A stretch of DNA of 64,000 nucleotides from an uncultured Bacteroidales bacterium (GTDB taxonomy: Bacteria; Bacteroidota; Bacteroidia; Bacteroidales; VadinHA17), in contig CAVTPX010000005.1 in the NCBI GenBank assembly GCA_963736735.1, positions 159,932 through 223,931 on the forward strand, in the 5' to 3' direction. Positions 18,432-37,998 of this stretch are shown one piece after another (the stretch's first letter is position 1; every line of letters begins with the position of its first letter). The notes beneath the pieces are model-generated. The model saw only the letters and a program-made list of their open reading frames with translations, was not told the origin of the DNA and did not search any database. The translations under genes were made by a program, and so were the position numbers.

Positions 18432-20849
18432 ATGAAGACATTAAATGTAATTCTGACAGGTGCCGCGGCGATAATGATCGTGGCTGCTTCCTGTTCCAAA
18501 GAAAACAAGGATGAGAACTATCCGATCAGACCAGTGCCTTTCACATCAGTGAAGATGACTGATAAATTCTGGGCACCCCGCATTCAGAAAAACCACGAAG
18601 TCACAATACCGATCGCCTTCGGGTTCTGTGAATCAACAGGCAGGGTTAAGAACTTCGAAATTGCAGGCGGACTCGATACAGGAGCCTTTCAGACAATATA
18701 TCCGTTTGACGATTCCGACGTTACAAAAATAATCGAGGGAGCAAGCTATTCACTTCAGACTTTTCCTGACCCGGAACTCGAAGCTTATCTCGATACACTA
18801 ATATATAAGATAGGACTCGCACAGGAAGATGACGGTTACTTATATACAAACCGCACAATCGCAGAAATGGGGTACGGCAAGCTTCACGACTGGGTTGGTG
18901 AAAAGAGATGGGAGACTGATAATATTCTTAGTCATGAGCTTTACAACCTCGGTCATATGTATGAGGCGGGCGTTGCTTATTACCAGGCTACTGGCAAGAG
19001 ATCACTTCTCGATATCTGCATAAAATCGGCAGACCTTGTTGATCACGATCTGGGCTGGGATGCCTTTGTGACCTATCCCGGACACCAGGTCATTGAAATG
19101 GGTCTTGTCAAACTTTACAGAGTTACAGGTGAAAAGAGATATCTGGACCTTGCAAAATTCTTCCTTGATGCACGAGGAACACGGGATGACGGGGAAGAGT
19201 ATTCGCAGTCACATAAGAAGGTTGTTGATCAGACTGAGGCCGTAGGTCATTCGGTAAGAGCTACATATATGTATTCAGGGATGGCTGACGTTGCAGCAAT
19301 CATGAAGGATGAGGCTTATCTGAATTCAATAACGAAAATATGGGAAGACCTGGTTTACAAGAAGATGTACATTACCGGCGGTATTGGAGCCAGTGGCGGG
19401 AACGAAGGCTTTGCCGAACCCTACAGCCTGCCCAATATGTCAGCTTACTGCGAGACCTGCGCCTCAATAGGTGATATATTTTTCAATCACCGGCTTTTCT
19501 CACTGCACGGTGAGGGCAAGTATTTTGATGTGCTCGAGAAGACACTCTATAACGGAGCACTGTCAGGGGTCAACCTTGCCGGCGACAGGTTCTTTTACCC
19601 CAATCCACTTGAATCAAACGGTCAGCATGAGCGGTCAGCCTGGTTCGGCTGTGCCTGCTGTCCTTCGAATGTTGCACGTTTTATTCCGGCTATTCCCGGG
19701 TACATTTACAGCGTAACCGATAAGGATTTGTATGTAAACTTATTCGCTTCAAATAATGCTGATATAGCCGTTGGGAGGAATAAGGTGGGAGTGACCCAGG
19801 AAACAAATTATCCGTGGGAAGGTGAAGTAAAAATTACTTTAAACCCGGAGAAATCAGGTAAGTTTAAGCTGCATATCCGTATTCCGGGCTGGGCCCGCAA
19901 TGAAGCCATACCTGGCGGGCTATACACTTTTGCAGACCAGAATGAAGAAGAATACTCGTTAAAAGTAAACGGTGAAGAGTTTGCTGCAGAGTTAACAGAC
20001 GGTTATGCAGTCATCTCCCGTAACTGGAAGCCGGGTGATATTGTGGAACTGTCATTGCCAATGCCGGTTCGGCCCGTATCAGCTGATACAAAGGTTAAAG
20101 AAGATGTTGACAAATATGCAATTCAGCGCGGACCACTGATGTTCTGTGCGGAATGGCCTGACAATCCCGAGGGACAGGTTCTCAACCTTGTAATTGATGA
20201 GAAACCGGAATTCAAAACAGAGTTCAGGGGAAATCTTCTCAACGGTACTGAGGTTATAAGCACAAAGGCACGGCAGTCTGTCAGGGGTCTTGACGGCTCG
20301 GTATCACTCGGAGAATATGAGGATGTGACACTGATACCTTACTTTTTGTGGAATAACAGGGGCGGGGGTGAAATGAGAGTTTGGTTCCCCTACAGGGAGA
20401 CGAGTGCCAGGCCTTCGCCGGCACCAACTATTGCATATACAAGTAAGATTACCGGCAGCATTCAGAACAGGTCACTGCTCTCAGTGGCAGACCAGTTTGA
20501 GCCTGCAAACTCCAATGACCACACCTGGCCCTACTACCACTGGTGGCCCAACAGGGACAAATGGGAATGGGTACAGCTTGACTTTAAAGAGAGGCAGACC
20601 ATTTCAAAGGTCAGAGTTTACTGGTTTGATGATGGTCCGTTCGGCGGGTGCAGGATTCCTGATGAATTTGAGGTACTATACAGTGCCGGTGGAGCTCTTA
20701 AGAAAGTTGAAACAATTTCGCCGCTTACGGTGGTCAAAGATGCCTGGAATATCGTCGAATTCACTCCGGTTTCTGCAACCGGAGTGCAACTAAGGGTGAA
20801 ACTAAACAAGGATTTTGCTTCCGGAATTCACGAAATAGTGGTCGAGTGA
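18432..20849 (+). CDS. GH127 beta-L-arabinofuranosidase-like protein, copy 3, with a C-terminal discoidin-like module
   Basis: 805 aa. The GH127 core has HELYNLGHMYEAGVAYYQATG, YCETCASIG and CACCPSNV. An extra ~147-aa C-terminal domain (nt ~20406-20846) reads WEWVQLDFKERQTISKVRVYWFDDGPFGGCRIPDEFEVLY...GVQLRVKL...GIHEIVVE. Confidence 0.9.
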   Translation: MKTLNVILTGAAAIMIVAASCSKENKDENYPIRPVPFTSVKMTDKFWAPRIQKNHEVTIPIAFGFCESTGRVKNFEIAGGLDTGAFQTIYPFDDSDVTKIIEGASYSLQTFPDPELEAYLDTLIYKIGLAQEDDGYLYTNRTIAEMGYGKLHDWVGEKRWETDNILSHELYNLGHMYEAGVAYYQATGKRSLLDICIKSADLVDHDLGWDAFVTYPGHQVIEMGLVKLYRVTGEKRYLDLAKFFLDARGTRDDGEEYSQSHKKVVDQTEAVGHSVRATYMYSGMADVAAIMKDEAYLNSITKIWEDLVYKKMYITGGIGASGGNEGFAEPYSLPNMSAYCETCASIGDIFFNHRLFSLHGEGKYFDVLEKTLYNGALSGVNLAGDRFFYPNPLESNGQHERSAWFGCACCPSNVARFIPAIPGYIYSVTDKDLYVNLFASNNADIAVGRNKVGVTQETNYPWEGEVKITLNPEKSGKFKLHIRIPGWARNEAIPGGLYTFADQNEEEYSLKVNGEEFAAELTDGYAVISRNWKPGDIVELSLPMPVRPVSADTKVKEDVDKYAIQRGPLMFCAEWPDNPEGQVLNLVIDEKPEFKTEFRGNLLNGTEVISTKARQSVRGLDGSVSLGEYEDVTLIPYFLWNNRGGGEMRVWFPYRETSARPSPAPTIAYTSKITGSIQNRSLLSVADQFEPANSNDHTWPYYHWWPNRDKWEWVQLDFKERQTISKVRVYWFDDGPFGGCRIPDEFEVLYSAGGALKKVETISPLTVVKDAWNIVEFTPVSATGVQLRVKLNKDFASGIHEIVVE

Positions 20850-20942
20850 GAAGGCTTCATCCCCTTATTTCAAACGTGTGCAAAAAAATGTTGAAAAACA
20901 CTATTGCTGTTAAGAAAATATCATAACTTGCATTTGAAAGGA

Positions 20943-20963: not shown

Positions 20964-21007
20964 TTAGGGTAGGGATAGGGTATTGTGTGTCTAATTATGT
21001 AATTAAT

Positions 21008-21124: not shown

Positions 21125-24100
21125 ATGAAACCTGACTTATTTATTAAGATGCGTTTACTGATCTGTTTGTTCCTGTTTACCCTGGTACCGCTATCGGTAT
21201 TCGGGCAAACCAGAACTATCACAGGTACAGTGGTTGATGAGAGTGGCGAAACTCTCCCGGGCGTGACAATAGTTATAGAAGGAACTACCAGGGGAGTTAC
21301 CACCGATTTTGACGGTAAGTTCAGTATTGCCGCCACACCGCAAGAGGTTCTTGTCATTTCCTTCGTGGGTATGACAACGGCTAATATTACGGTGGGATCC
21401 CAGACTGTAATTAACGTAATCCTTAAAGCTGCAGTCTCTGAGATTGAGTCTGTTGTTGTAGTTGGATACGGTGTACAGAAAAAAGAAACTGTTGTCGGTG
21501 CCGTTTCACAGGTCTCCGGCGAAAAGATCCGCACCATGAAGATGGGTGGCGCCATTGAGAATAACCTGCAGGGAATGTTGCCCGGCATGGTGGTTCTTAT
21601 GCAGGATGCCACCCCGGGTGAAGAATCCAGATCAATCACAATGCAGATCAGGGCAGGAGCTTCAATGGGCAATAACACTCCCCTCATTCTTGTTGACGGT
21701 GTGGAAAGATCTTTTTCAAATATTGATCCAAATGAAATTGCATCCATCTCTATACTCAAGGATGCTTCGGCAACTGCCGTTTACGGTGTAAAGGGTGCCA
21801 ACGGTGTTGTCATTGTAAATACCAAGAGAGGCAGGGAAGGCGCCCTCGAACTTGAATTCTCGTCAGAGACTATGCTGAAAGCGGCAACACGGCTCCCTGA
21901 GTATATGAACTCATATGAGACCATGCTACTCAGGAATGAGGCCTACAGCAATGACGGTAAATGGACAAGCCTTATAGGTAATGATGCTCTCGAGCACTAT
22001 CGTACAGGGGATTCTCCATATCTCTATCCGGACTTCGACTGGATGGATTTTTATTTTAAACCGGCAGTTGACCAGAACTACAACCTGAATGCCCGCGGCG
22101 GTAATAAGTTCGTACAGTATTTTGTATCTGTAGGCTATCTGTCGGAAGGTGATATTTTTGATGTAGGCTCCCTCTTTCCCTATTCATACGAAAAACATGA
22201 TGCCTCATACTGGCATAAGAGGTACAATTTCAGGAACAACCTCGACTTTAACCTGACCAAGTCGACAAAACTTTCAATCAACCTGGCGGGAAACCTTAAG
22301 GTCTGGAATAAACCTACTGACGACTATACTCAGGAACAGTGGTTTGAAGCTGTGACCTCGATGCCGTTTTACCCGGAAGAGGCAGTACAGCAGTTCCCGG
22401 ATGACAGGATCCCTTATGATCAGACAGGGATAAGATATTTTGAGAATCCGCAGCAGGGTGAAGTAAGGATGCACTGGCTTGGCGCCCGCGGCTTCCGCCG
22501 CAATAAAAGCAACGGAGTCTCCACTGATGTAAATCTTGAACAGAAGCTCGATTTTATAACCGAAGGCTTATCTGCATCGGCCTACTACTCATTTAATACA
22601 GATATTGCTCACAGCCAGAATTTTAATCTGGATTATATGTTCGGGTACTATCTTAATCCTGCCGATTCCACCTGGTCAAGATACACAAACAACCAGGTAC
22701 TGGACCTGGATACACCCCAGCCAAAGCTTAATGTAAACAACTCCGAAAGCCTGTCAAGTGCCTCAAGAAGCACATATTACAAGGGCCAGTTGAACTATGT
22801 CCGCAGCTTCGGTAAACATAATGTTACAGCAGTAGGTGTATTCAGTCGCAGACAGTCGCGCGGCATTTCAACCTTTCCCTCATATGAGGAGAACTGGGTG
22901 GCTCGTGCTACTTATAATTATGATGAGAGATATCTGTTTGAATCCAGTATCGCCTACACCGGGTCCGAAAAATTTGCTCCTGGTCTTCGTTTCGGAACAT
23001 TTCCTTCATTTGCTGCAGGGTGGCTTGCCTCAGAGGAAGACTTCTTTAAAAATGCACTTCCGTGGGTGAACTACTTTAAGACCCGTTTTTCATGGGGTAT
23101 GGTAGGTAGTGACGCCGGCATTGCAAGGTGGCTCTATATATCAGAGTATACAAACGGTGGACGGGACATCCGGTTTCGGATATCCGATGACAATGTATCC
23201 CAATATCAGTGAAGGAACAATTCCGGTGACTGATGCCACCTGGGAGACAGCAAGAAAATCAGACCTCGGGTTTGAAATGGGGTTCTTCAATAATCAGATA
23301 ACCCTGAATATTGACCTGTACGATGAGCACCGTACAAATATTCTTCAGGCCAGAAGGTCAGTCCCTTCGTGGGTTGGCGTAAGCTCCATCCAGGGAAACA
23401 GTGGTGAAACAAAGGCCCACGGTATTGAGCTGGAACTTGGTCTTAACCATACATTTAACAAACTCACCCTGCAGCTTCATGGCACACTTGCCGCCAATGA
23501 GAGCCGGGTTGTTTCATATGATGAACCGGATGCTAAACCGGAACACCTCTCTGTTGAGGGCAAGCCTGTAGGTGTTGCCCAGCGTATGTACTGCTCAGGG
23601 ATACTTGATGATGGCTTTTATCAGAGTTTTGATGAACTGTTTATGTATCCGCGTGCGGCAGGTGTTGCTCCTATACTGGGCGACTTTAAATACCTGGACT
23701 ATAATGGTGACGGAACTGTTAACGCCTCCGACAAGATAGTGGCGGCCAATCCGTATGCACCTGCTGTTACCTGGGGACTGAACCTTGCAGCTTTATACAA
23801 AAAGTGGACTGCCAGGGTTGACTTCTACGGTATCAGTTCAACTTCCTACCCGATGAGACAGGGTGGTATGTTCTTCCTTTATCCGTTCTCCCAGAACAAG
23901 GATAACGCCTATACTTCACACGCCGACCACTGGACACCTGAAAACAGGGATGCAACATGGCCGGCAGTACATGCAGTAGCAACCGATCAGTACAACTACC
24001 AGGCAAACTCATTTGCAATCGTAGACGGCAAATATACAAGGCTGAAGAATGTTGCCCTGTCATACAGAATGGACGCTCCGGTCCTCGGCAGAATAGGTGT

Positions 24101-24257
24101 AAAACAGGTTGACCTGACTTTTACAGGTACCAACCTTCTGACCTGGACTCCCGGATTCAGACTCGGCGGTGACCCTGAAGGATTCAACTCAGGTGTTGAC
24201 TTTGGCGCATATCCGATGATGAAACGTTTCACATTCGAGGTAAGGCTATTGTTCTAA
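21125..24257 (+). pseudogene. SusC/RagA-family TonB-dependent transporter 1, one +1 frameshift near 23160 (or a sequence error)
   Basis: Fragments 21125..23212 (frame 2) and 23109..24257 (frame 3) are collinear. The N-terminus is TITGTVVDESGETLPGVTIVIEGTTRGVTTDFDGKFSI (CarboxypepD_reg) followed by VVVGYGVQKKETVVGAVSQV (the SusC plug entry). The C-terminus ends in a barrel strand, ...FTFEVRLLF. Confidence 0.85.
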
Positions 24258-24276
24258 ACAGGTAAAAACTACGAAA

Positions 24277-26031
24277 ATGAAAAAGATAATATTATTTTTT
24301 CTTCCGATAGCCCTCCTGTTCCAGGGATGTGAAGAATATCTTGATAAAGTACAGGAGTCGTCCGGAATGGATGAAACCCAGGTATTTACAGACTATAATA
24401 ACTTCCGCAGGTTTGAAGACAGGATGTACAAGGACATGCATGACTACCTGGCCGACTATGACTACGGCATGATAGCTGCAATTTGCGATGAAGGTTATAC
24501 CGAATCAGCCCAGTGGGAAACAATGGGGATTGTACAGTCAGGTGACTGGATTCGTGCCTACAGCACTGCCCAGGCTCTTCAGTTCAGCGCTATATGGACC
24601 GCATGGCAGAGCATCAGGATAGCAAATATTTCACTTCAGAAGTTACCGATGCTTGAAGGAAATGCTACTCAGACACAGATTAATGAGCTTGAGGGGCAGG
24701 CACGGTTTATGCGTGCCTGGTACTATTATGAGTTTCTGAAAAGACAGGGAGGCATGCCTTATCTTACTGAGCCTCTTGGAGGTTCAGACAACTATGCATT
24801 ACCCAGGCTTTCTTTCCATGAAACAGCACTTAAAATAGCTGAAGACTGTGACGCTGCAGCCGATCTGCTACCTGCAAAATGGGATATGGCCAATATCGGA
24901 AGACCTACTAAAGGCGCTGCAATGGCGGTGAAGGCATCTGCTTTGCTCTTCTCTGCAAGCCCCTCAAATAATCCCGGGAATGATCAGGCCAAATGGCAGG
25001 TTGCCGCACAGGCTTCATGGGATATAATTGCATTTGCCCAGTCAACTGGAACATACAAACTGATGCAGTCAAACGGGACAGACCAGATTACATATACCGG
25101 CCCCGGAGGTGTAAAGACAATAACCTATCCGAGTGGGTTTGACAGCATTTTCATGTATACACCCTATAATGATGAGATTATCTGGGAGTTTTATGAAAGG
25201 ATGAATTCCGGAGGTCAGTACAGCACCTTTACAATTGCCAGTCTGGCAGAAGGCGGAATTATCCAGGGTTACAGCCCTTCACAGAATATTGTCGACCTGT
25301 TTGAAACAAAGAACGGTCTCGCAATAGATGATGATCCTGCCTATGATCCTCAGAATCCTTATGTTGACAGGGACCCCAGGTTCTACCACAGTATTCTTTT
25401 TAACCGTGAACGCTGGACCAGCGGAACAAACCTGTACCTCGAGCTCTATAACGGAGGTCGTGACAGAGCCAGCGGAGACCTGAAGCACTATTCATATACA
25501 GGTTACCTGGCACGGAAATTCTGGGGCAAAAACGTTGACCTCTGGTCAGGTTCCGGAGCTCCTTTTACACATACAATATATTTCCGGTATGCTGACATCC
25601 TGTTACAATATGCTGAAGCCGCCAATGAACTCGGAGGACCCGGTTACACTCTTCCCGGAGCCACAATGAGCGCAGTACAGGCACTGAACCTCGTCAGGGC
25701 ACGTGTAAATATGCCTGGGGTTAGTTCGACATATCTTGCAAGCAAGGAAGCTTTCAGAGAGAGAATAAAGAGTGAGAGAGCAGTAGAGCTATACCTTGAG
25801 GGAAAGCGTTTCTTCGACCTTTCCCGCTGGGGCGATGCTCACAAGCAGGAACATAAGGAAATTTACGGCGTAAACTTCGTTGATGACGCCAGCAAACCGA
25901 CAGGGTATACAATCTCACGCACTCCTGGTCCGATCTACACTCTCGTATTTGATCAGAAACATTATAAGTGGCCCATACCCCTTAATGATGCAATGATGTT
26001 CAAGGAGTTCACACAGAACCCGGGATGGTAG
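24277..26031 (+). CDS. SusD/RagB-family lipoprotein 1
   Basis: 584 aa with a lipoprotein signal (LLFQGCEEYLD). The RAWYYYEFLKRQGGMPY region, ERAVELYLEGKRFFDLSRW and the C-terminal FTQNPGW are canonical SusD-like features. Confidence 0.9.
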   Translation: MKKIILFFLPIALLFQGCEEYLDKVQESSGMDETQVFTDYNNFRRFEDRMYKDMHDYLADYDYGMIAAICDEGYTESAQWETMGIVQSGDWIRAYSTAQALQFSAIWTAWQSIRIANISLQKLPMLEGNATQTQINELEGQARFMRAWYYYEFLKRQGGMPYLTEPLGGSDNYALPRLSFHETALKIAEDCDAAADLLPAKWDMANIGRPTKGAAMAVKASALLFSASPSNNPGNDQAKWQVAAQASWDIIAFAQSTGTYKLMQSNGTDQITYTGPGGVKTITYPSGFDSIFMYTPYNDEIIWEFYERMNSGGQYSTFTIASLAEGGIIQGYSPSQNIVDLFETKNGLAIDDDPAYDPQNPYVDRDPRFYHSILFNRERWTSGTNLYLELYNGGRDRASGDLKHYSYTGYLARKFWGKNVDLWSGSGAPFTHTIYFRYADILLQYAEAANELGGPGYTLPGATMSAVQALNLVRARVNMPGVSSTYLASKEAFRERIKSERAVELYLEGKRFFDLSRWGDAHKQEHKEIYGVNFVDDASKPTGYTISRTPGPIYTLVFDQKHYKWPIPLNDAMMFKEFTQNPGW

Positions 26032-26061
26032 TAATCAAAATCTGGTTCAATTCTCAGAAAG

Positions 26062-29000
26062 ATGAAAAATATGAAAAATAAAATATTCAGAACTGTGTTG
26101 ATGTTTTGTGCCCTGTTCAGCATTTTTGCAAGCAGCACAGCCTATCCCCAGGAAAGGCAGATATCAACAGTAACAGGTCAGTGGCCAGGTGATTACTGAC
26201 GATGCACAACCTGTGCAGGGAGTTTTAGTGAAGGCATTTAATACAAACAAAGTTGCCTTTACGGATCTTCAGGGTAACTTCTCTGTTGAAGTCTCTACAG
26301 GTCTGACTGACAGGCTTTCAATCAGCCATGACGGTTTTCTTCAAAAGATTGTTACGGTCGAACCGGGCAATGCTGAGTTGGGAACGGTTGCCCTTGAAAG
26401 AAAGATTTCATTCAGCGGTTCTAACATCGAACAGTTGCCATACAGGTCACTCACAAGCGACCGTAACGTATCGGCTGTTTCAACAATTACCGGTGAAGAA
26501 CTTACTTCATATCCGTCAACAACTTTACTCGACGCGCTCGCCGGCAGGATACCCGGACTTGTAATACAGCCCAATTCGACGATGCCCGGTCAGGAATCAT
26601 TTACTGCATACCTGAGAGGCTCGGTAGCAAACATCTACATTGATGGCGTTATGAGAGACATTACAGGCCTGTCAGCCGCCGAGGTCGATGAAGTACAGGT
26701 TATAAAAGATCTGTCAGGAAGGGCTATGCTCGGGCTTTCAGGGTCAGGCCCTGTCATCTGGATTACAACCAGGAAGGGAACCGGCTATGACAGGGATATA
26801 AGTGTCTCGGCAGAATACGGTTTAAGTTCACCAACATCACTTCCGAAATACCTTGATTCGTATAATTATGCCACCTTGCTTAACGAGGCGCTGGATAACG
26901 ACGGTCAGGCTCCCAGGTACACTCAGGCTGATCTTGACGCATATAGCAGTAATTCAAACCCCGTTCGCTACCCGAATGTGGATTATTACGGACAATATGT
27001 AAAACAAAACGCTCCTTTCCGTAAAGCCAATATCAACTTTGCCGGAGGAGACAACAGGGTAACCTACTTCTCAATGTTTGATTACGTAGGAAACAGCGGA
27101 CTGGAAACAGTTGGCGAGAAAATTAAAAATGACAGATACAAACTGAGAGGGAATGTTGCAATCAGACTCAATGACTTCATGAGAATGAGTGTCAATATTT
27201 CGGCTTCGATGAACAAACAGCGCTTCCCGAATGCAGGCAGCGGCGCTGGTGTCTACAATATGTTCAATATCCTGTCGACATATCCGTCAAATGCCCATCC
27301 GGTATCATTTAATGACCTGCTTATCAGAAGCGATAACTACCCTGTAAACCTGGATAATGAACTTATGTATTCCGGCTTTGCCGAAGGCACAATACTGAAT
27401 GCGCAGAACAATGCCAAACTGTTCATTGATCTGGGAGGCGTCATAAAAGGACTATCGATGATAGGATCTGCCTCATTCGATGTCTCTGACGAACTTATTA
27501 ACAACAAGGGCGGTACAGCTGCACTTTACCGTCTCGAGCGCACATCTCTGGGAGCTGATACGGCCGTGAGAGTAGTGGAGGCACAGAATGTTACCTCAAT
27601 GTCACTCGGGTCCTTCGATATACTGAGAAGAACAGCAGGATATGTGGGAATGAATTACGACCGTGAATTCGGAAAAAGTTCACTCACCGCCGATGCAACA
27701 TTCTACATTGCACTGGAGGAGTTGAGAGCTACAGGTGCCGGTTATCAGCCTTCCAAGGTTGAGGATCTCTCCTTCAGGGCCAATTACTCATATGACAAGA
27801 GGTATGTCGCCCAGCTTGATCTGGCATATTCTGGCAGTAACAGAATGCCGGCCGGAGAAAGATTCTCCCTCTATCCCACACTCGGTCTTGGATGGATTGT
27901 AAGCAATGAGTCCTTCCTGAAAGGCAATTCGCTGATTGATTACCTGAAAGTTTTCACCTCGGCCGGTATAATGGGAGTTAATGACTATTATCTCGCAGGT
28001 TATAATCCCTTCTACCTTCAGGAAACACTCTGGACTTTAAATGGCGGATGGGCTCCGGGAATTGCAGGTAACGGTGGCGAATGGGTCGATACTTACGTAT
28101 TGCTCCAGACCGGTACTGACAATTTTGTGCTGCCGAAGAAACGCTACTTCAACCTTGGCACCCAGGCAACCCTTCTCGATAAATCACTTGCTGTGGAAAT
28201 CAACTACTTCAATGAGAAGAATTATGACAAGATTTCCAACATGGGTGCAACCACTCCTTCTATTATAGGAAGCCCGCAGGCATTACCCGCAGTCAATTTC
28301 GGTGAAGATGTACGCTGGGGACTTGACGCTTCAGTTCAGTTAAGCAAAAGCGCAGGAGAATTCAGGTATGGTCTTGGTGTCAATGCAATGTACATGAGGG
28401 CAAAGTACCTTGTGGTTGATGAGCCTTCAGCCCTTGAGGATTACAAAAAACTTGCAGGCACTGATATGGATGCCTTCTGGCTATATGAAGCCGAAGGACT
28501 CTTCCAGGATGCAGGCGAGATAACTTCAAGGAATATAGATCAAAGCTGGGGCGCCCTTCAACCGGGGGATATCAGGTATGCAGATATTAACAATGACAAT
28601 GTTATTGATGAAAACGATATTCATGCAACTGACTTCCATTCACCCAGATTATTCTACGGTGTCAATCTGTCGGCCGGATACAGGGGGGTAAACCTTTATG
28701 TCCTCGGACAGGGCGTTGCAGACGGAAGCACGATGCTTGCATCTGACCGCTACTTCAGGGTCAACGGTTCAACCCAGAACTACTCCGAACTTATGCTTGA
28801 CCGATTCCCGGTTACAAATAATTATCCGAGACTCACCACCGTTTCACAGAATAACACACAGTATTCTACTTTCTGGGTCGCCGGTGCAGCTTTCTTCAGG
28901 CTGAAGAATGTCGAGCTGAGTTACACATTCCCGGAAACTGCCTCTCAGAAACTGGCGATGACCAATCTGAGGGTATTTGCCAGAGGAACAAACCTGGCTG

Positions 29001-29110
29001 TATTTTCCGGTCTGAAAAAATACAGTGTGGATCCTGAGAATATAACTGCAGGTATTAACGGCTATCCCCTTTTCAGGACAGTCACTGCGGGAGTTTCCTG
29101 TAAATTCTAA
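26062..29110 (+). pseudogene. SusC/RagA-family TonB-dependent transporter 2, +1 frameshift near 26185 (or a sequence error)
   Basis: The signal peptide MKNMKNKIFRTVLMFCALFSIFASSTAYPQERQISTVTGQ is encoded from 26062 in frame 1 and stops at 26197-26199. The protein continues in frame 2 (ORF 26189..29110) with VITDDAQPVQGVLVKAFNTNKVAFTDLQGNFSV, then a plug and a barrel ending ...TAGVSCKF. Confidence 0.8.
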
Positions 29111-29127
29111 TGTTAAAAAGCGAAACT

Positions 29128-31296
29128 ATGAAACGATTTATAGTATTTTTCATAACAGCAGTTCTGACGGTCTCCTGCGAATTTCTTGATCCCAGGCCTA
29201 TAATGGATCTCACTACTGATGAGCTCCTCAGCAACGCCCAGTATGGTGAAGGATTACTTACAGGAGCCTATATGAACCTTAATACAGATTACATCGATTA
29301 TCTGGATTATTATACAGACAATGCCGTTCCTTCGGTACCCGGGGGCAACAGCATAGCTCTTGGCAACTGGACAGTTCAGAACAACCCGATTGGTGAATGG
29401 AACAGGTGGTATGAAAGCATCGGGTACCTCAATATGTATCTGAGGGATTGCAAGGACCTGCTTTTCAGTGTTTCTGACCCTGGTCTCAATAATATCCTTC
29501 AGAAAAACAGGAGAGGTGAAGCTTTTTTCCTGAGGGCATATTATCAGTGGCTGCTTTTGCAGACCTACGGAGGATATCCTGATGGCGGTACCACCGCACT
29601 GGGATTCCCGATAGTAACCACGGTCCTTACCACTGGCGATGAGCTTGATCTTCCGCGTAACACCTATGAAGAGTGCGTTGCCCAGATTGCAAAAGACTGT
29701 GATTCCGCAATAGTGCTTCTTCCAAAATGGTACAACGGGACCAGTTCCTGGGATAACCTGAGCAATCGGGGCAGGGCTGATGCAATGTCAGCACATGCAC
29801 TGAAGGCAAGGGTGTATCTTTATGCTGCAAGTCCGGCATACAGTGAGTCCACCCCGGAGCTCTGGCAGCGTGCTGCACTGGTAGCCCGCGATGCAATGGT
29901 GTACTACGGCGGCAACAACCTTCATACCCTTGAAAGGATTGCAACTGACGGAGGAAGTCTTAATAACATCTTTATACAGCCATCTTATAACTCGAACGAC
30001 TGGGAATATGCATTCTACCCACCATCACTTTACGGTCGCGGTGAATGTAACCCTTCACAAAACCTTGTTGACGAGTTCCCAATGATGGACGGCTACCCGA
30101 CCAGTATAAGCCCACTTTTTAATCCGTCAAAGCCTTATGATAACCGTGACTCACGCCTTGGCAAGTTCATCTTCTATAACGGGATGACATACAACGGTAC
30201 TACGGTTAAGACATATACCGGAGGGACCGACGCCCCCGGAGGCCTGAGTATCCAGGGAACACGCACAGGTTACTACCTGAAAAAATGGCTTAATTCCAAT
30301 GTCAGACTGACACCGGGCAATGTCACCACAAGTGCCAGGTTTAAGGTTTTCCTTGGAAAAACGGAGCTCTACCTGAACTTTATCGAGGCAGCAAACGAGG
30401 CATACGGTCCGGATGATGCTTCACTGGGATTCTCTGCAAACGCTGTTCTTAAGCTGTTCAGAGACCGCGCGGGTATTGACTCAAATCCCACTACTTCAGG
30501 ATTGCAGGATCAGTACAGGCTTGACCAGGCCGCTGCAGGTAAAGATGCTTTCCGTGAACTGATACGGAGCACAAGACGAATTGAACTCAGTTTTGAGGGA
30601 TTCCGCTTCTGGGATATCAGACGATGGGACCTGCCTCTTGACCATACGGTAACTGGTGCAGATATCACAATACCAACGACGCCGCCAGTTCTTGATAACA
30701 CAAATATTGCCATGGGATCTACAGCCTCGACTGATTATGTGTCATCATGGGAAACACTGACTGCCATAAACGACGGGTTCACTCCTGCCAGCTCAACCGA
30801 TAATGACCACGGCAAATACGGGAACTGGAACAGCAGTAATACTGACAGGTACGTTCAGTATGATTTTCCGAACTACATCGCCCTGAACGGTACAAGCAAT
30901 GTCTACATTGTTAACCAGTCAGACGTATACTGGTTCACTGACGGTGGCGGACTCCTTTTGCCTGATGTAACTTTTGTGGAATACTGGAATATGACAGCCG
31001 GAGCCTGGCAAACAGTACCTTCACCCGTTGGAAACGGAGCAGCTGCTGATCAGTGGAATATCACAACCTTCCAGCCGGTTACGACCGACAAGATCAGGCT
31101 GCATACGAAAAGTAACACCGAGTCAACCGGAATTATCGAGTGGAAAGTGTGGGGCTACCCTGCCAATTCAGTTAGCTTTGACTTCCAGACAAAGAATGTA
31201 GAAACACATTCTTTCCAGGAATACATGAGATATATCCCTGTACCTTACAGCCAGACCCTGGTGATGAGTAATCTGAAACAAAACAGTGGATGGTAG
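29128..31296 (+). CDS. SusD/RagB-family lipoprotein 2 carrying an inserted discoidin-like module
   Basis: The likely start is the Met at 29128 (MKRFIVFFITAVLTVSCEF). The SusD hallmarks are AFFLRAYYQWLLLQTYGGYP, RRIELSFEGFRFWDIRRW and the C-terminal NLKQNSGW. About 168 aa (nt ~30667-31170) lie between the RFWDIRRW region and the terminal IPVPYSQ segment and have no counterpart in SusD-like 1. Confidence 0.85.
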   Translation: MKRFIVFFITAVLTVSCEFLDPRPIMDLTTDELLSNAQYGEGLLTGAYMNLNTDYIDYLDYYTDNAVPSVPGGNSIALGNWTVQNNPIGEWNRWYESIGYLNMYLRDCKDLLFSVSDPGLNNILQKNRRGEAFFLRAYYQWLLLQTYGGYPDGGTTALGFPIVTTVLTTGDELDLPRNTYEECVAQIAKDCDSAIVLLPKWYNGTSSWDNLSNRGRADAMSAHALKARVYLYAASPAYSESTPELWQRAALVARDAMVYYGGNNLHTLERIATDGGSLNNIFIQPSYNSNDWEYAFYPPSLYGRGECNPSQNLVDEFPMMDGYPTSISPLFNPSKPYDNRDSRLGKFIFYNGMTYNGTTVKTYTGGTDAPGGLSIQGTRTGYYLKKWLNSNVRLTPGNVTTSARFKVFLGKTELYLNFIEAANEAYGPDDASLGFSANAVLKLFRDRAGIDSNPTTSGLQDQYRLDQAAAGKDAFRELIRSTRRIELSFEGFRFWDIRRWDLPLDHTVTGADITIPTTPPVLDNTNIAMGSTASTDYVSSWETLTAINDGFTPASSTDNDHGKYGNWNSSNTDRYVQYDFPNYIALNGTSNVYIVNQSDVYWFTDGGGLLLPDVTFVEYWNMTAGAWQTVPSPVGNGAAADQWNITTFQPVTTDKIRLHTKSNTESTGIIEWKVWGYPANSVSFDFQTKNVETHSFQEYMRYIPVPYSQTLVMSNLKQNSGW

Positions 31297-31336
31297 AATG
31301 AGTTTACCAATAATGGGAAACGATAAAAAAGGAACT

Positions 31337-32698
31337 ATGAAAAAGATATTTATAATCATAACGCTGGCAGTCTTTCTGACAAGCTGCTACGACGAGTTCA
31401 GAAATGACTATCCATATACGACTGTTGCCTTTTCAACCGTCACCGGCGGACTCAATACCGCAGGTGAACTCGGGAGGACAGTTGTCAAGGACGAAGGCCT
31501 TAAACTTGACATTGGCGTCTATCTTGCCGGTGTGCTTGAAAATAAGGATGACAGATGGGTCAGGTATACAATTGATCCTGCCCTCCTGGCCGGTACTTCC
31601 TATACGCTCATGCCAACCAGCTACTACACGTTGAGCAATCCAAATACATTTGAGATTCCCGCTGGTGATTTTATTGGAAGAGTCACGGTTACCCTTGATT
31701 CAGCAGCGTTTCTTGCAGACAACAAATCTGCAAGTTATTCGTACGCAATTCCGATAAGATTGACTGAAACTTCCGCCGACTCCATACTTTCATCACAGAA
31801 TACCAAGATCGTTGTTATTAAATACATTAACCATTATGAAGGTTATTATGATAACACCGCATCATTTGTAAATTATGATGCAGGCGGCGGAGAGATGGGT
31901 TCAGACACAAAAGCCTCAGTGATCGATGCTAAAACGATCACTCTCGATTCTATCCTTGCAGACGGTGTAAACTACCTCGTGGGAGAGAACTACATGATTA
32001 AAATGGCTGTCAGACCTGATAAATCCGTATGGTTCAAGAAGCTTCCGAGCCCTCCGCAGGTGGCCAAGAATCTCGCACCCCAGGCTACCCTTGTTTCTAC
32101 ATCATATGTTTCCAGTTGGGAAAAACTCGAAGCAGTACGTGATGGATATGATCCGACAAGTTCAACGGACAAGAATGGCGCTGCATATGGTAACTGGAAT
32201 AGCTCAAATACCTGGAGATGGGTTCAGTACGACTTCCCCAGAGTTTGTAAAATCACTCAGTCTGACATCTACTGGTGGACTGACGGTGGAGGTATCCAGA
32301 TACCTGATGAAACATATGTCGAATACTGGAATGAAACAACCCAGGCATGGGCAACAGTACCTAATCCGGTTGGGAACGGAATTGTAATCAATCAGTACAA
32401 CATCACAACCTTCGACGAAGTTCTGACAACAAAGATCAGGGTTTGGATGATTGACCATGTCGAATCATGCGGTATCCTTGAATGGAAGGTGTGGGGTATC
32501 CCTGTACCGGTAACACCGGAACAGGCCATCATCGCTGATGTGGTTGCTGACGGTGCCAATACATTCGATCCTGCAACCAGCACTTTTACTCTGAACTATA
32601 AGGTGACTTATGAAAATGAAACTTATTATACAAAAGTCTCGTCGAAAATGATCTGGAGAAACAGGGTCAGAGACAAAGTCAACGAATGGAGAAGGTAG
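31337..32698 (+). CDS. Surface glycan-binding-protein-like lipoprotein (DUF1735/DUF4361-like) with an internal discoidin-like module
   Basis: The likely start is the Met at 31337 (MKKIFIIITLAVFLTSCYDEF). The N-terminal part resembles DUF1735 (YTLMPTSYYTLSNPNTFEIPAGDFIGRVTVTL). The module at nt ~32050-32510 is ~65-70% identical by eye to the insertion in the preceding SusD-like gene. The tail MIWRNRVRDKVNEWRR resembles DUF4361-type ends. Confidence 0.6.
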   Translation: MKKIFIIITLAVFLTSCYDEFRNDYPYTTVAFSTVTGGLNTAGELGRTVVKDEGLKLDIGVYLAGVLENKDDRWVRYTIDPALLAGTSYTLMPTSYYTLSNPNTFEIPAGDFIGRVTVTLDSAAFLADNKSASYSYAIPIRLTETSADSILSSQNTKIVVIKYINHYEGYYDNTASFVNYDAGGGEMGSDTKASVIDAKTITLDSILADGVNYLVGENYMIKMAVRPDKSVWFKKLPSPPQVAKNLAPQATLVSTSYVSSWEKLEAVRDGYDPTSSTDKNGAAYGNWNSSNTWRWVQYDFPRVCKITQSDIYWWTDGGGIQIPDETYVEYWNETTQAWATVPNPVGNGIVINQYNITTFDEVLTTKIRVWMIDHVESCGILEWKVWGIPVPVTPEQAIIADVVADGANTFDPATSTFTLNYKVTYENETYYTKVSSKMIWRNRVRDKVNEWRR

Positions 32699-32899: not shown

Positions 32900-35247
32900 A
32901 TGAGAACCGTTTATTATTTGTTAGTTATGGCAGTAATACTCTCTTCATGCGGAGGGAGCAAAAGCGTAAAACAAGGGGCTACTGTTCCCAATGCTTCATT
33001 TGAGGATGCAACACTTACAGTTGTCAATGGGTGGACTTCCGAGGCACGTTCAAGGGATATGGTTGCATTCTATGATTTTGTCAGCCATGAAGGCAAAAGG
33101 AGCCTTACCCTCATTGCCGACAGGCCGGCATCAGGCAGGTGGCTGACAAAGGTCGGACTTAAGCCCTGGTCAAAGTACAAATTTACCGGGTGGGTGAAAA
33201 CCGAAAACCTTGCGGCAGCAAAAGGAAATGGAGCAGGCTTCAGATTTGATGCCTTCAATGTTGACTATCCCGGACTCACCGGCACGAACGACTGGACTAA
33301 ACTCGAATTTGAATTCGAGACGGGAAATGATGATTCATCAGTACTGTCATGCCTCATGAATGTTGACGGCAACGCCTCGGGAAGGGTCTGGTTTGACGAT
33401 CTCAGTCTTGAGCTTATTTCTTCAGAGGTTATAAAAACATCGGTTAAGATTGATATTGCTCAGGCCAGAGAGCCGATGTCAGAGTACATCTACGGTCAGT
33501 TCATTGAACATCTGGGCAAATGCATTTACGGGGGCATCTGGGCGGAGATGATTGAAGACCGCAAATTCTGGTACGTCCCAGGTGAGAGGGAATCTCCCTG
33601 GAGGATCACCGGCAGGAGAGAACTCTTTTCTGTAGATAAAACTGCGCCTTTTACAGGAACACAGACTCCGGTGCTTACTGCCGGCACAGATGGCGTTGTA
33701 TCGATGCAACAGTCAGGCCTTGGCCTTAAGCCTGATCTGGATTACAACGGCCGGATTATCCTGAAGTCAACCCCTGGTATTGAAAAGGTTGATATTATAC
33801 TGAGCTGGGCTGACAGGTCAGAGACAGTGACTGTGACCGGGTTGACAGGCAATTACGCAAGCTATCCCCTGGCTTTTCATTCCGGAGAGCTGACTCACAA
33901 TGCCTCTACTTGAGATAAAACCTTACGGAAACGGTAAGCTATGGGTGGGCACAGTAAGTCTTATGCCCTCAGACAATGTTGAAGGTTTCAGGCCTGATGT
34001 CTTGGACCTGCTTCGTCAGCTTGATGCACCAGTCTACAGGTGGCCGGGCGGCAACTTCGTGAGCGGATATGACTGGAAAGACGGCATCGGTGACCGTGAC
34101 AAAAGACCTCCACGGAAGAATCCGGCATGGCAGGGAGTGGAACATAATGATGTTGGAATCCATGAGTTCATGACATTCTGTAAACTGCTTGGCACTGAAC
34201 CTTATATTGCGGTCAATGCAGGTCTTGGCGACTCAAAGCAGGCACAGGAAGAAGTTGAATACTGTAACGGAGGCGCAGATGACACCAATGGGCAGACTCA
34301 GGACCTCCAACGGTCAGGCTGAACCCTGGAATGTTAAATGGTGGTCTATAGGTAACGAGATGTACGGCGACTGGCAGCTGGGTCACATGACAACAGAAGA
34401 TTTTGTGAATAAGCACAATGCATTCGCTGATGCAATGAGAAGTGTGGACCCATCAATAAAACTGATTGCCGTAGGTGATCTTGGCGACTGGGACCGGATG
34501 GTACTTGCCAACTGCTCTGAAAGCATGGACCTGATAAGTGAACATTTCTACCGTCAGGACTGGCACGGTGGAGGTCTTATGACCCACGTGAAACAGATTC
34601 CTGATGCAATCAGGGAGAAGGCAGATGCGCACCGCCAGTACAGGAAAGAGATACCTGCGCTTGAAGGGAAGGATATCCGCATATGCATGGATGAGTGGAA
34701 CTACTGGTACGGTCCGCACATTTACGGCGAACTGGGAACACGTTACTTCATGCGTGACGCTCTGGGAATTGCAGCCGGCATTAACGAGTATTCACGGCAA
34801 AGCGATATAATATTCATGGCAAATTATGCCCAGACTGTAAATGTAATCGGGTGTATAAAAACAAATACAACAAGTTCTGTTTTTGATCCTACCGGGCAGG
34901 CACTGAAAATGTACAGGAGACATTTCGGAACAATACCGGTAGCAGTTAGCGGTGAAACAAGACCCCTCGACATTGCTGCCACACTGAACAGCACAAAGGA
35001 TACCCTGACACTCTCTGTTGTGAATCCGACAATGGCACCTGTTGAATTCCCGCTTGAATTACTCAGCGGCACACTGACCCCTGGCGGAGAACTCTGGCAG
35101 GTGGTTGCCGAAGATGACATGGCCTACAATGAGCCCGGTCAGCCCGAGAAGGTCAGGATTGAAGGCCCGGTGGCAGTGACTTCGGGAAAATCGATTTCAG
35201 TAAATCCTGCCAGCATCAGCATTTACCGTTTCGGTATTAAAAAATAA
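32900..35247 (+). pseudogene. CBM4/9-like + GH51 alpha-L-arabinofuranosidase, two +1 frameshifts (~33909, ~34281), or sequence errors
   Basis: The fragments are 32900..33913, 33900..34322 and 34189..35247, in frames 2,3,1. The N-terminal CBM-like domain reads GWTSEA...KYKFTGWVKTENL...GRVWFDDLSLE. The GH51 core has YRWPGGNFVSGYDWKDGIG, WWSIGNEMYG (acid/base Glu) and ICMDEWNYW (nucleophile Glu). Confidence 0.85.
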
Positions 35248-35283
35248 AAACAAATACTACTAAATATCCAAAAACCAGGTATC

Positions 35284-37998
35284 ATGAAAACGTCACGAAT
35301 TCTTATTTTGTTTTTAATTGCCTTTCTTGGACTTGCAGTGACACTGCCGGGCACCGGAAAGCAGAAGACGCAGGCAGAAAAGGCGAATGTCGCCGTTCTT
35401 GCCAATTTAAGCTCATCGGCACGCGGTGGAGGCCAGCTGACAGGACTGAATGACGGTCTGACCCCCAACACTGTTCCCGATCAGATGAGACAGTATATGA
35501 CAAGACCCCAGACAGGTAACAACCGCAGACCGTCACGTCTCACGGCACAGTGGTTTCAGTACGACTGGGCTTCGCCTGTAACGATTGACGAGGTGGCTCT
35601 CTACTGGTACAATTTCGATAACCTGGCAAAATTTCCGCAGGTGTACAGGCTGAAATACTGGGACGGTAAAGATTTCGTTCCGGTCAGCAATCCTGTCGGT
35701 CTCGGAATGGAAAATGACAAGTATAATAATACCTCATTTAACGAAGTGACAACGACCAGGCTGAGGCTTGAAGTCGATTCGGTCGACCGTTTCTCTAACA
35801 CCATCCTCGAATGGAAGGTGCTTAAGACTCTGAATTCGCCCGAGGTGGCTCCTGTCATTACAGCAGGCGGTGACCGTGATGTTGTTGTGGGTGGCAAAAC
35901 CTATCTTTCAGCTTCGATTAAGACTGTGGATCCTTTGAAGAATACTGCATGGACAGCAAAAGGTCCCGGAAAAGTTGTGTTTGCTGATCCTGCAGCACTT
36001 GTAACAACAGCCACATTCAGTACTCCCGGTGATTATGTATTGACACTTAGTTCCCAGGCAGGCACGATGAAATCATCGGCTGCACTGAATGTCAAAGCGG
36101 TCTTCCCGCCAAAAGAAAAGAGACTTGATGTAGTCTATACAAAGAGGTACAAGATTGATAATCCGCTTTGGAATGAACGGGCAAAGACGCTCATAACCAA
36201 CTGGATACCTTATTGTGTCAACCAGATTGAACGGACTGATCTTACTGAGGGCCAGGGCGGACTTGATAACTTCGTCGAGGCAGCGAAAGCTCTTCGCGGC
36301 GAAGCCCACGGGAAGCATCTGGGTTACGTATTTTCGAATGCCTGGGTACATCAGACTGTAGAGTCGATGTGCATTGCACTCATGGTTGATCCGCAGGGAG
36401 ACCCTGAAATAATTGCTGCACAGGAAAAGATGAAGGTTACCCTTGAGAAATGGATTCCAATCATTCTTGCTGCACAGGAGCCTGACGGTTATCTGCAGAC
36501 GGCATTCACACTTCGTGACACGGCACGCTGGCATAACAGATGGGCTCCCCAGACACGCGGAAACCATGAAGGTTATGTGGCAGGTTATTTTATCGAGTCA
36601 GCCATAAACCATTATACTCTCACTGAGGGCAAAGACAGGAGACTTTACGATGCAGCCAAGAAACTCTCTGACTGCTGGGTTGCCAACATTGGCCCCGGTA
36701 AGATTATCTGGTTCGACGGTCATCAGGAAATGGAACAGGCGCTTGTGCGTTTCGGAAGATTTGTAAATGATATGGAAGGTAACGGTCGCGGCGACAGTTA
36801 TGTTGCCCTCGCCAAATTCCTGCTTGACAGTCGTGCCGGCGGCAGTGAATATGATCAGAGTCATGTTCCTGTACAGCAGCAGTACGAGGCTGTCGGACAT
36901 GCCGTACGCGCGGTTTATAACTATTCTGCAATGGCCGATGTGGCTGCAGAGACAGGTGATGTCGATTACCAGAGCGCTGTGATGTCACTGTGGGATAACA
37001 TGGTAAACAAGAAGTACTATGTCACCGGTGGCGTAGGAAGCGGTGAAACATCTGAAGGTTTCGGTCCGAACTATTCGCTGCGCAATAATGCCTATTGCGA
37101 GTCATGCTCTAGTTGCGGTCTTATTTTCTTCCAGCATAAGATGAATATCGCATACCATGATGCAAAGTATGCTGACCTGTATGAGGAAACGATGTATAAT
37201 GCACTCCTTGGATCAGTCGATTTCGCAGGGAAGAATTTCTACTACACAAACCCACTGGCCTCCTCTTCAGGCCGCACTGCATGGCATGTATGTCCGTGCT
37301 GCGTTGGCAACATTCCGCGTACGCTGTTGATGATCCCTACCTGGACATATGTAAAAAGCGATGACGGCATCTATGTTAACCTTTATATCGGCAGTACAAT
37401 CAATGTTGAGAAAGCCGCCGGCACTGACATCGAGATGGTTCAGAAAACTGACTATCCGTGGAAGGGCGACGTTTCGATAACTGTAAACCCGAAACAGAGT
37501 AAGAAATTCACTGTATTTGTACGTGTTCCTGACCGCAAAACCAGCGAGCTTTACACTTCGGTTCCGGCACTCAATACCCTGAAGTCACTGGCAGTGAATG
37601 GCAAGCCTGTTCCGATGAAAATCGACAAGGGTTATATTGCAATTACCCGCGAATGGAAAAAGGGTGACAAAATTGATCTTGTAATCCCGATGGAGGTACA
37701 GCAGATTACCGCTGATGAAAAGATTGAAGCCAACAGGGGTCGTATTGCATTCCGTTACGGTCCGCTGATTTATAACGTGGAGAAGGCTGACCAGCCTGAC
37801 ATCAACCAGTCAGTTGGAGCAGGCACTTTCAAGGCACTGTGGAATCCTGATATGTTCAACGGCATCATGACAATTAACGGTACCTGGGCTGACGGAACAC
37901 CGCTTCTGTCCATTCCGAACTATCTGAGAGCCAACCGTCTTCCGGCAGAACGACCAGCAGACAGAGCTCCTGCCTTTATGGTCTGGATGACAAAGTAG
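35284..37998 (+). CDS. GH127/GH146-superfamily (DUF1680) enzyme with an N-terminal discoidin-like module and an Ig-like domain
   Basis: 904 aa. The N-terminal module (nt ~35383-35826) reads AQWFQYDWASPVTIDEVALYWYNFDNLAKFPQVYRLKYWDGKDFVPVSNPVG...TTRLRLEV...ILEWKVL. The catalytic region has [29 protein letters not shown] and VCPCCVGNI. Confidence 0.8.
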   Translation: MKTSRILILFLIAFLGLAVTLPGTGKQKTQAEKANVAVLANLSSSARGGGQLTGLNDGLTPNTVPDQMRQYMTRPQTGNNRRPSRLTAQWFQYDWASPVTIDEVALYWYNFDNLAKFPQVYRLKYWDGKDFVPVSNPVGLGMENDKYNNTSFNEVTTTRLRLEVDSVDRFSNTILEWKVLKTLNSPEVAPVITAGGDRDVVVGGKTYLSASIKTVDPLKNTAWTAKGPGKVVFADPAALVTTATFSTPGDYVLTLSSQAGTMKSSAALNVKAVFPPKEKRLDVVYTKRYKIDNPLWNERAKTLITNWIPYCVNQIERTDLTEGQGGLDNFVEAAKALRGEAHGKHLGYVFSNAWVHQTVESMCIALMVDPQGDPEIIAAQEKMKVTLEKWIPIILAAQEPDGYLQTAFTLRDTARWHNRWAPQTRGNHEGYVAGYFIESAINHYTLTEGKDRRLYDAAKKLSDCWVANIGPGKIIWFDGHQEMEQALVRFGRFVNDMEGNGRGDSYVALAKFLLDSRAGGSEYDQSHVPVQQQYEAVGHAVRAVYNYSAMADVAAETGDVDYQSAVMSLWDNMVNKKYYVTGGVGSGETSEGFGPNYSLRNNAYCESCSSCGLIFFQHKMNIAYHDAKYADLYEETMYNALLGSVDFAGKNFYYTNPLASSSGRTAWHVCPCCVGNIPRTLLMIPTWTYVKSDDGIYVNLYIGSTINVEKAAGTDIEMVQKTDYPWKGDVSITVNPKQSKKFTVFVRVPDRKTSELYTSVPALNTLKSLAVNGKPVPMKIDKGYIAITREWKKGDKIDLVIPMEVQQITADEKIEANRGRIAFRYGPLIYNVEKADQPDINQSVGAGTFKALWNPDMFNGIMTINGTWADGTPLLSIPNYLRANRLPAERPADRAPAFMVWMTK

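Follow-up and report, generated by a model that had tools for sequence, protein, structure and literature searches.

A discoidin-like accessory module nested in a SusD-family protein and in the adjoining SGBP-like lipoprotein of a Bacteroidales polysaccharide utilization locus

A 64,000-nucleotide stretch of DNA from an uncultured Bacteroidales bacterium (GenBank assembly GCA_963736735.1, contig CAVTPX010000005.1, positions 159,932 to 223,931; hereafter the window) carries on its + strand a polysaccharide utilization locus (PUL) in which four proteins share one accessory module. The gene order is arabinose genes, three glycoside hydrolase family 127 (GH127) genes, the pairs SusC-1/SusD-1 and SusC-2/SusD-2, a gene for a lipoprotein resembling surface glycan-binding proteins (SGBPs), a GH51-like gene, a fourth GH127 gene and two DUF5695 genes. 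The four hosts of the module, all encoded on the + strand, are the third GH127 enzyme (GH127-3; 18432..20849), SusD-2 (728 aa; 29110..31296), the SGBP-like lipoprotein (31286..32698) and the fourth GH127 enzyme (GH127-4, 904 aa; 35284..37998). The two enzymes carry the module as a terminal appendage. In the SusD-family protein and the SGBP it is nested within the host sequence.

The limits of the four copies were set by a hidden Markov model (HMM) built from the four segments and searched against the window. Copy a (nt 20406-20846, + strand) is a C-terminal appendage spanning aa 659-805 of GH127-3, and copy d (nt 35371-35826, + strand) is an N-terminal appendage spanning aa 30-181 of GH127-4. 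The nested insertions are copy b (nt 30676-31161, + strand), which corresponds to aa 523-684 of SusD-2, and copy c (nt 32048-32503, + strand), which corresponds to aa 255-406 of the SGBP. Each of the four segments lies in frame within an intact open reading frame (ORF), and neither tblastn nor hmmsearch found a fifth copy in the window. In pairwise comparisons (BLASTP/TBLASTN), b and c are 54% identical over 165 aa (E 8e-53). The other pairs are more distant: a-b (31%, E 4e-14), b-d (29%, E 5e-13), c-d (31%, E 4e-13), a-c (30%, E 1e-11) and a-d (26%, E 2e-7). The four segments are true homologues of a single accessory beta-sandwich module of ~150 residues. They fall into three old lineages, represented by GH127 C-terminal copies (a), GH127 N-terminal copies (d) and SusD/SGBP copies (b and c).

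A preliminary description of this DNA had proposed that the same module occurs in four protein contexts, and the pairwise E values (2e-7 to 8e-53), together with the exactly four envelopes that the HMM gives in the window, bear this out. Some of its details need adjustment. Its coordinates are in frame except for the approximate start of copy c at 32050, which misses the frame by 1 nt (the in-frame position is 32051). The 65-70% identity given for b and c is accurate for the 45-aa stretch that was quoted (69%) and too high for the whole module (57%, or 60% on conserved columns). Among the proposed consensus features, YVSSWE is found in b and c only, and DGGG, (E/K)YW, PxGxG and EWKV are each absent from a, d or both.

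Profile searches and structure prediction assign the module to the galactose-binding-like (F5/8 type C or discoidin) superfamily, and these comparisons indicate that the assignment is correct at the level of fold and superfamily. Excised copy a scores above the gathering thresholds of Pfam models PF22633 (32.3 bits) and PF00754 (29.5 bits), and excised copy d narrowly exceeds the PF00754 cut-off (28.9 bits versus 28.2). The F5/8 type C models that match a and d are those that cover many modules of carbohydrate-binding module (CBM) family 32. Excised copy c reaches 24.8 bits with F5/8 type C, which is below the gathering score, and excised b has no F5/8 type C match. Pfam and NCBIfam searches with whole SusD-2 leave the module unannotated, and its excision is needed to obtain even a weak match to the BgaA-like_CBM model.

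Relatives of known structure were also compared. A profile built on all four copies finds two discoidin domains in BgaD (8q2h; whole-protein E 3e-21) and CBM71 of pneumococcal BgaA (4cua; E 8e-5), with BbgIII next. Matches to YeCBM32 (2jd9; E 0.009) and to CBM32-bearing GH89 and GH20 enzymes (E 0.02-0.15) are weak. An AlphaFold model of copy b alone, computed from a 64-sequence alignment (pLDDT 94.8, pTM 0.88), is nearly all-beta with two short helices and has a distorted jelly-roll beta-sandwich fold. In Foldseek searches with this model, the top matches are CBM71 structures (4cub and 4cua; E 4e-10, query TM-score [TMq] 0.73, probability 1.0), followed by 8q2h, CBM32 modules, the fucose-binding modules of lectinolysin and SpX, and the N-terminal domain of galactose oxidase. 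CBM32, lectinolysin and the galactose oxidase domain are likewise matched with probability 1.0. The closest solved relatives of the module are CBM71 and the BgaD discoidin domains, and then CBM32. The HMMER, AlphaFold and Foldseek comparisons, together with the Pfam matches of a and d, support the earlier designation of the module as a discoidin-like putative CBM.

Members of the wider family are numerous. A profile search of a 5.8-billion-protein set returned fragments of at most 293 aa, in which GH127-linked contexts are visible and full architectures are not, and an unindexed search was used to size the family. It comprises 2925 clusters at 50% identity with E values up to 1e-3, and 191 clusters at 1e-30. 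Its members often occur as several copies in very large proteins, beside DUF6055, Laminin_G_3, NPCBM or GH127 domains. C-terminal placement on GH127 enzymes is common, as most top matches to the module profile are fragments with a GH127 C-terminal domain plus F5/8 type C, and 'Tat signal' N-terminal module types are also found among the matches. Database annotations already contain the combination of GH127 with F5/8 type C.

SusD-2, the host of copy b, has the features expected of the SusD/RagB family. It contains both Pfam domains (PF07980, E 8.8e-33; PF14322, E 1.9e-18), a lipoprotein signal with its lipobox cysteine at position 23 (C-EFLD), and an adjoining SusC gene. The partner, SusC-2, is a TonB-dependent transporter (26189..29110, + strand; Pfam Plug and CarboxypepD_reg) whose ORF ends at nucleotide 29110, the base with which the SusD-2 ORF begins. 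Downstream of the module, SusD-2 keeps the canonical C-terminal tail of SusD proteins (aa 688-728, ...NLKQNSGW). Alignment with orthologues of 551-602 aa from flavobacteria and other Bacteroidia exposes a clean insertion of ~165 aa in SusD-2, located between '...LNHTVxGVxIT' and 'YxYxxVExHxYQDYMRYxPVPYxQTLIMxNLKQNxGW'. In an AlphaFold model of the full-length protein (pLDDT 89.2, pTM 0.80), host strands 512-520 and 691-700 flank an independently folded sandwich. As judged from the alignment and the model, copy b is an insertion at the tip of a C-terminal SusD beta-hairpin and not a terminal fusion.

This arrangement departs from the single-domain SusD architecture of ~450-620 aa, since SusD-2 has 728 aa and a nested sandwich of ~165 aa. 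When the full SusD-2 model is compared with solved structures by Foldseek, the 50 best matches are all 423-615 aa long and cover the SusD body only (TMq at most 0.52, TMt up to 0.72), and none of these 50 has an extra beta-sandwich. An assembly artefact or chimera was considered as the source of the insertion and is ruled out by a 99%-identical protein in independent datasets and by the same architecture in 24 other genomes. The architecture is common, with long forms making up ~45 of the 120 best SusD-2 homologue clusters at 90% identity. Separately, one 997-aa protein from NCBI (P0175) combines a SusD homologue and DUF1735 (PF08522) in one polypeptide, which is apparently a SusD-SGBP gene fusion or read-through of an overlapping stop and start. 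A literature search returned no description of a SusD protein with an inserted discoidin or CBM domain, nor of this type of PUL.

The SGBP that carries copy c consists of a DUF1735/BT_3987-like N-terminal domain and a BT_3044-like C-terminal domain. Translation likely starts at the ATG at 31337 (MKKIF...), which yields a lipobox with the context C-YDEF. The N-terminal domain matches PF08522 (4e-14), and the lipoprotein matches the structure 3n91 (E 3e-7). The second domain reaches its Pfam threshold only after removal of the module. The intact protein gives a partial, sub-threshold match to PF14274, and deletion of aa 255-406 in silico extends the match to profile positions 3-137 of 141 with 25.1 bits (gathering score 23.1). 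Orthologous SGBPs without a module, 288-313 aa in length, are found in five loci. These sequence comparisons place copy c as a nested insertion inside the BT_3044-like domain.

Both enzyme hosts contain the GH127 catalytic, middle and C-terminal domains (PF07944, PF20736 and PF20737, all above cut-off) and a CxCC motif, which reads GCACCPSN in GH127-3 and VCPCCVGN in GH127-4. GH127-3 matches the structure 6ex6 with an E value of 5e-225. GH127-4, which had been described as GH127/146-like, matches the GH127 structures 6ex6 (E 9e-100) and 4qjy (E 1e-90) far better than the GH146 structure 5opj (E 6e-16), and only the GH127 half of that label is retained. Assignment to the aceric acid hydrolase equivalog is also rejected, as GH127-3 scores 466 bits and GH127-4 282 bits with the equivalog model NF049879, whose cut-off is 950 bits. 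The enzymes differ in their N termini. GH127-3 has a lipid-anchor cysteine followed by SKENKDE (C-SKENKDE), a lipoprotein N-terminus from which surface exposure is inferred, and the signal sequences of SusD-2, the SGBP and GH127-3 suggest that all three are surface lipoproteins. The signal peptide of GH127-4 lacks a lipobox cysteine, and this enzyme is probably periplasmic or soluble.

The distribution of the nested copies was traced by a genome scan that yielded 79 loci. HMM searches of their ORFs gave 43 classifiable orthologous PULs, including that of the window. The module is present in both the SGBP and the SusD protein at 25 of the 43 loci, among them the window and the loci of the cultured strains Plebeiibacterium sediminum AAT and Draconibacterium mangrovi GM2-18. 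Another 13 loci carry it in the SGBP only. These are mostly from flavobacteria (for example, Mariniflexile, Zunongwangia, Wenyingzhuangia and Salegentibacter) and also include some Bacteroidales metagenome-assembled genomes (MAGs). Five loci have no module in either protein (L037, L038, L041 and the more distant L044 and L045), and in none of the 43 is it confined to SusD. All 25 long SusD forms share one insertion site and the same flanks. The 24 genomes other than that of the window span several orders, and their SusD bodies are 50-71% identical to SusD-2. On a tree of SusD bodies, long and short forms are intermixed, with the module-less L037, L038 and L041 in basal positions.

A neighbor-joining (NJ) tree of 95 modules with 100 bootstrap replicates recovers two GH127 clades with 100% support each, one of C-terminal modules and the other, the main one, of N-terminal modules. 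SusD and SGBP modules form one superclade (61% support) together with three modules from proteins secreted by the type IX secretion system (T9SS). Within this superclade, no replicate recovers either the SusD modules or the SGBP modules as a monophyletic group (0 of 100). The T9SS-secreted proteins represent a fifth context for the module (L012:18763-21471, L043:17025-19664 and L038:15824-18436 [- strand]). They are 871-903 aa long, with an N-terminal module, fn3 domains in two of the three, an unannotated centre of ~500 aa and a Por_Secre_tail. Because their modules join the SusD/SGBP superclade, apart from the GH127 types, they may represent the donor lineage. The nested modules of one SusD clade (L010, L011, L013-L015, L017 and L021) are 75-96% identical to each other and score 54-69 bits with the family profile, compared to 153-176 bits for the SGBP copies of the same loci. 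Their divergence may signal a change in specificity.

Codon comparisons show purifying selection on the SusD modules. For the five closest genome pairs (88-95% aa identity), identity within the SusD module is 89-99% at codon positions 1 and 2 and 58-80% at position 3, and two more distant pairs show a pattern in the same direction. SGBP alleles seem to have been exchanged independently of SusD as well. In two pairs of loci (L002 with L029, and L007 with L006), the SusD modules are 88-91% identical, and the SGBP modules are 52-64% identical.

Comparison with the nearest genome in the GTDB-based set points to exchange on a larger scale. This genome is a Bacteroidales MAG whose locus (L047) has the module in the SGBP and a SusD protein without the insertion; its SusD gene is frameshifted. 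The surface-capture cassette of the window, consisting of SusC-1, SusD-1, SusC-2, SusD-2 and the SGBP (21125..32698, + strand), is 62-77% identical in DNA sequence to its counterpart, versus 89-96% for the flanking enzyme genes. Identity at third codon positions is 44-50% in the cassette, which corresponds to saturation, versus 77-90% in the flanks. The boundaries of the divergent region are the SusC-1 start and the SGBP stop. This fall of third-position identity to saturation indicates that the whole cassette was replaced by recombination and did not merely undergo faster protein evolution. Because the L047 SusD is short and alleles differ between close relatives, the patchy distribution of long and short SusD forms can be explained without repeated insertions.

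These observations are best accommodated by an account of architecture, history and function that we regard as probable overall, though well short of assured. In this account, the orthologous PUL family would first have gained the module in its SGBP. It would later have been copied from the SGBP into SusD at a single site, after which the long SusD allele would have been lost in some lines or exchanged, partly through swaps of the whole SusC/SusD/SGBP cassette. The module would be a non-catalytic glycan-binding unit that holds its ligand at the apex, remote from the termini. In CBM71, which binds a Ca2+ ion, the apex with the ligand site is likewise at the far end from the termini (PMC4161441). 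As the termini of CBM71-type modules lie together, opposite the ligand site, the binding apex of a nested copy could face away from the host protein. The SusD lid and the SGBP would then gain similar extra predicted sites, leading to higher avidity for the substrate, and the enzyme-borne copies would target catalytic domains, possibly to different epitopes.

The loops of the module are in keeping with this division. SusD and SGBP copies have in common the loop motifs tDYVSxWE, PxsSxD, ygNWxS, tDgGG and ESxGIxEW, a consensus that supports similar predicted sites in these two proteins and not in the two enzyme lineages. The few scattered columns that are conserved across all four copies are read as probable fold residues and not as a shared binding site. 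A more specific proposal is tentative, and we give it somewhat less than an even chance. It holds that there is a sizeable clade of SusD lids with their own outward-facing, predicted glycan-binding module, a second capture site that was duplicated from the SGBP. Its presence would vary among close relatives through recombinational exchange of the whole SusC/SusD/SGBP cassette, with the enzyme genes remaining in place.

Several points count against this interpretation. Identity to CBM71 and CBM32 structures is only 11-19%, and with the Pfam proxy for CBM71 (BgaA-like_CBM, PF21606; cut-off 27) b scores 16.2 bits, c scores 12.4 bits, and a and d have no match. Since the wider family is attached to many unrelated domains, specificity cannot be read from family membership. 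The loop motifs of a and d differ from those of b and c, and the module of GH127-4 would be no surface-capture device because its host lacks a lipobox and is probably periplasmic. Internal nodes of the SusD/SGBP superclade have 32-62% bootstrap support in the NJ tree, so any order or number of SGBP-to-SusD transfers read from it is tentative. The substrate assignment discussed below is drawn from gene content alone.

A quite different reading, in which SusD and the SGBP exchanged the module by a recent duplication and all four copies recognize one epitope during capture, transport and hydrolysis, is highly improbable. All four genes do reside in one locus, b and c share most loop motifs, and on conserved columns b resembles the SGBP copy of its own locus (60%) slightly more than foreign SGBP copies (median 48%, maximum 56.7%) or foreign SusD copies (maximum 58.4%). 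This modest excess may reflect either shared ligand constraints or sparse sampling. However, b and c are only 59.9% identical at the nucleotide level, with a longest identical run of 12 nt. The third positions of their identical codons agree in 52% of cases, so that synonymous sites are saturated, and 3 of 100 bootstrap replicates place the two window modules as sisters. Low DNA identity and low sister support imply that the duplication is old, with no recent gene conversion visible, and the nucleotide comparison rules out recent conversion between b and c. The occurrence of the insertion in 24 other genomes of several orders adds to this evidence, and the 'recent domain shuffling between adjacent genes' of the preliminary description must be given up in favor of an architecture that is old and widespread. 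The companion idea, that one glycan epitope is recognized at every step, fares somewhat better. It suits the loops of b and c, but the identity of a and d to these copies is only 26-31% and their loops are different, making the idea only half plausible and at best partly likely.

The other two alternatives concern function and the number of gains. The module might be a structural spacer, a docking surface for assembly of a utilisome on SusC, or a shield from phages and predators, which we consider unlikely. Discoidin folds also mediate protein contacts, and Foldseek matches of the module include APC/C, IFT25 and BIRC6. Copy b is below threshold for every Pfam CBM model, DUF1735 has itself been proposed as a spacer (PMC11216935), and the hyper-divergence of the capture cassette is what would be expected of surface proteins under diversifying pressure. 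Yet every one of the module's nearest relatives, by structure and by sequence, is a carbohydrate-binding module of a glycosidase, the terminal attachment to many GH127 enzymes is a classic CBM arrangement, and the module itself is under strong purifying selection. Docking or shielding also makes little sense on GH127-4 if this enzyme is periplasmic, as is probable. As for history, repeated origin of the SusD insertion from the adjoining SGBP, or its homogenization by gene conversion, is somewhat unlikely relative to a single gain. Repeated gain would account for the failure of SusD modules to form a monophyletic group in any replicate, for the interleaving of long and short forms, and for the grouping of clade-A SusD modules with clade-A SGBP modules, and likewise of the L019 pair, in the NJ tree. 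These within-genome groupings are weakly supported (33-42%), and most genomes have a SusD copy that is closer to some other module than to the one in its own SGBP. An insertion point that is identical, flanks included, in 25 of 25 long forms speaks for a single gain, and the cassette swap between the window and L047 already accounts for patchiness.

The setting of the capture genes provides clues to the substrate. The PUL includes an L-arabinose catabolism set, comprising, in this order, araA, a NUDIX-type AraR regulator, araD and an FGGY kinase, and three tandem GH127 genes (14473-20849, + strand). These genes cluster with the fourth GH127 gene and a single GH51-like gene. A beta-L-arabinofuranosylated glycan from plants or algae is the probable substrate, for example, extensin-type hydroxyproline-rich glycoproteins or the side chains of arabinan or arabinogalactan proteins. 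The precedent behind this assignment is the GH127/GH121 systems of bifidobacteria (PMC7263609, PMC10850190).

Three DUF5695 proteins are encoded within or next to the locus (38070-40877, 40874-43639 and 50189-52717 [- strand]), one of which matches the Pfam model with 1227 bits. They are candidates for uncharacterized enzymes that act on the same glycan. A literature search for DUF5695 found a sole mention, in an unrelated paper, and no described function. Three genes are split by apparent frameshifts: SusC-1 (two ORFs; 21125-24257), the GH51-like arabinofuranosidase (three ORFs; 32900-35247) and a sodium:solute symporter (at least four ORFs; 7939-9820). These are either long-read assembly errors or pseudogenes.

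Other features of the window lie outside of the capture system. Two islands (48000-50000 and 52000-56000) have a GC content of 0.37-0.38, versus ~0.47-0.50 elsewhere in the window, and may be acquired DNA. Their products include a histidine-kinase fragment, a response-regulator/thioredoxin fusion and a MutS-domain/ABC-ATPase protein. Elsewhere, two 3-keto-disaccharide hydrolase domains occur in one protein (55682-58444, - strand) that adjoins a GFO/IDH/MocA oxidoreductase, a pair that is suggestive of an oxidative glycoside-cleavage pathway. Beside this pair is a GH3 enzyme with a PA14 insert (58494-61154).

SusD proteins are treated as single-domain lids with one ligand site, turned toward the SusC barrel. 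From a conserved clade in which SusD carries a nested CBM-like domain it would follow that the lid itself is able to acquire an additional binding module, and such armed-lid SusD proteins would, if the interpretation is correct, constitute a previously undescribed architectural class and a way of tuning glycan capture. Domain nesting, as opposed to end-to-end fusion, would be a route by which PUL surface proteins gain function. The three states observed among orthologous loci (no module, SGBP only, and SGBP plus SusD) would offer a natural series for the contribution of extra sites to glycan capture. More broadly, the locus is a widely conserved, uncharacterized Bacteroidota system, probably for beta-L-arabinofuranosylated glycans, and includes three DUF5695 proteins of uncharacterized function.

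Each part of this architecture has counterparts in characterized systems. Canonical SusD/RagB lids such as BF3747 (3qnk), BT1762, BT4246 and SusD (3ck7) resemble SusD-2 in having both Pfam domains, a lipobox, a partner SusC and the C-terminal tail. They differ from it in that the 50 best solved matches cover the body alone, without an inserted sandwich. DUF1735 lipoproteins often carry F5/8 type C domains. The SGBP of the window, in which a binding-type beta-sandwich comes after DUF1735, resembles such PUL lipoproteins and SGBPs of the SusE/SusF type. In the window, though, the module is nested in the BT_3044-like domain and not appended, and module-less orthologues exist. A survey of DUF1735 proteins includes F5/8 type C among its domain abbreviations (PMC11216935).

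Among binding modules, CBM71 of the Streptococcus pneumoniae GH2 beta-galactosidase BgaA (4CU9, 4CUA and 4CUB) is a beta-sandwich with an F/WxxDxGxxxP...Y stretch that aligns with the module in HMMER comparisons. Its identity is 17-19%, and it binds lactose and N-acetyllactosamine on a Gram-positive surface enzyme, whereas the module described here belongs to a locus for beta-L-arabinofuranosides, as judged from its genes. The discoidin domains of the Bacillus circulans beta-galactosidase BgaD (8q2h) are the strongest solved sequence relatives and share the DG...W, FxDxG..P..Y and ExKV motifs, but they are terminal tandem appendages of a Firmicutes GH2 enzyme and are not nested in a binding protein. 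CBM32 modules, including those of Clostridium perfringens NanJ, GH84C and GH89 and Yersinia YeCBM32, have the same fold (TMq ~0.6, Foldseek E ~1e-6) with identities of 8-18%, and b and c are below the corresponding Pfam gathering score. Nesting itself has a precedent among PUL proteins, as CBMs are inserted in the catalytic domains of Bacteroidota GH10 xylanases. Those inserts are of the CBM4/CBM22 type and their hosts are enzymes, whereas the hosts in the window are a SusD lid and an SGBP.

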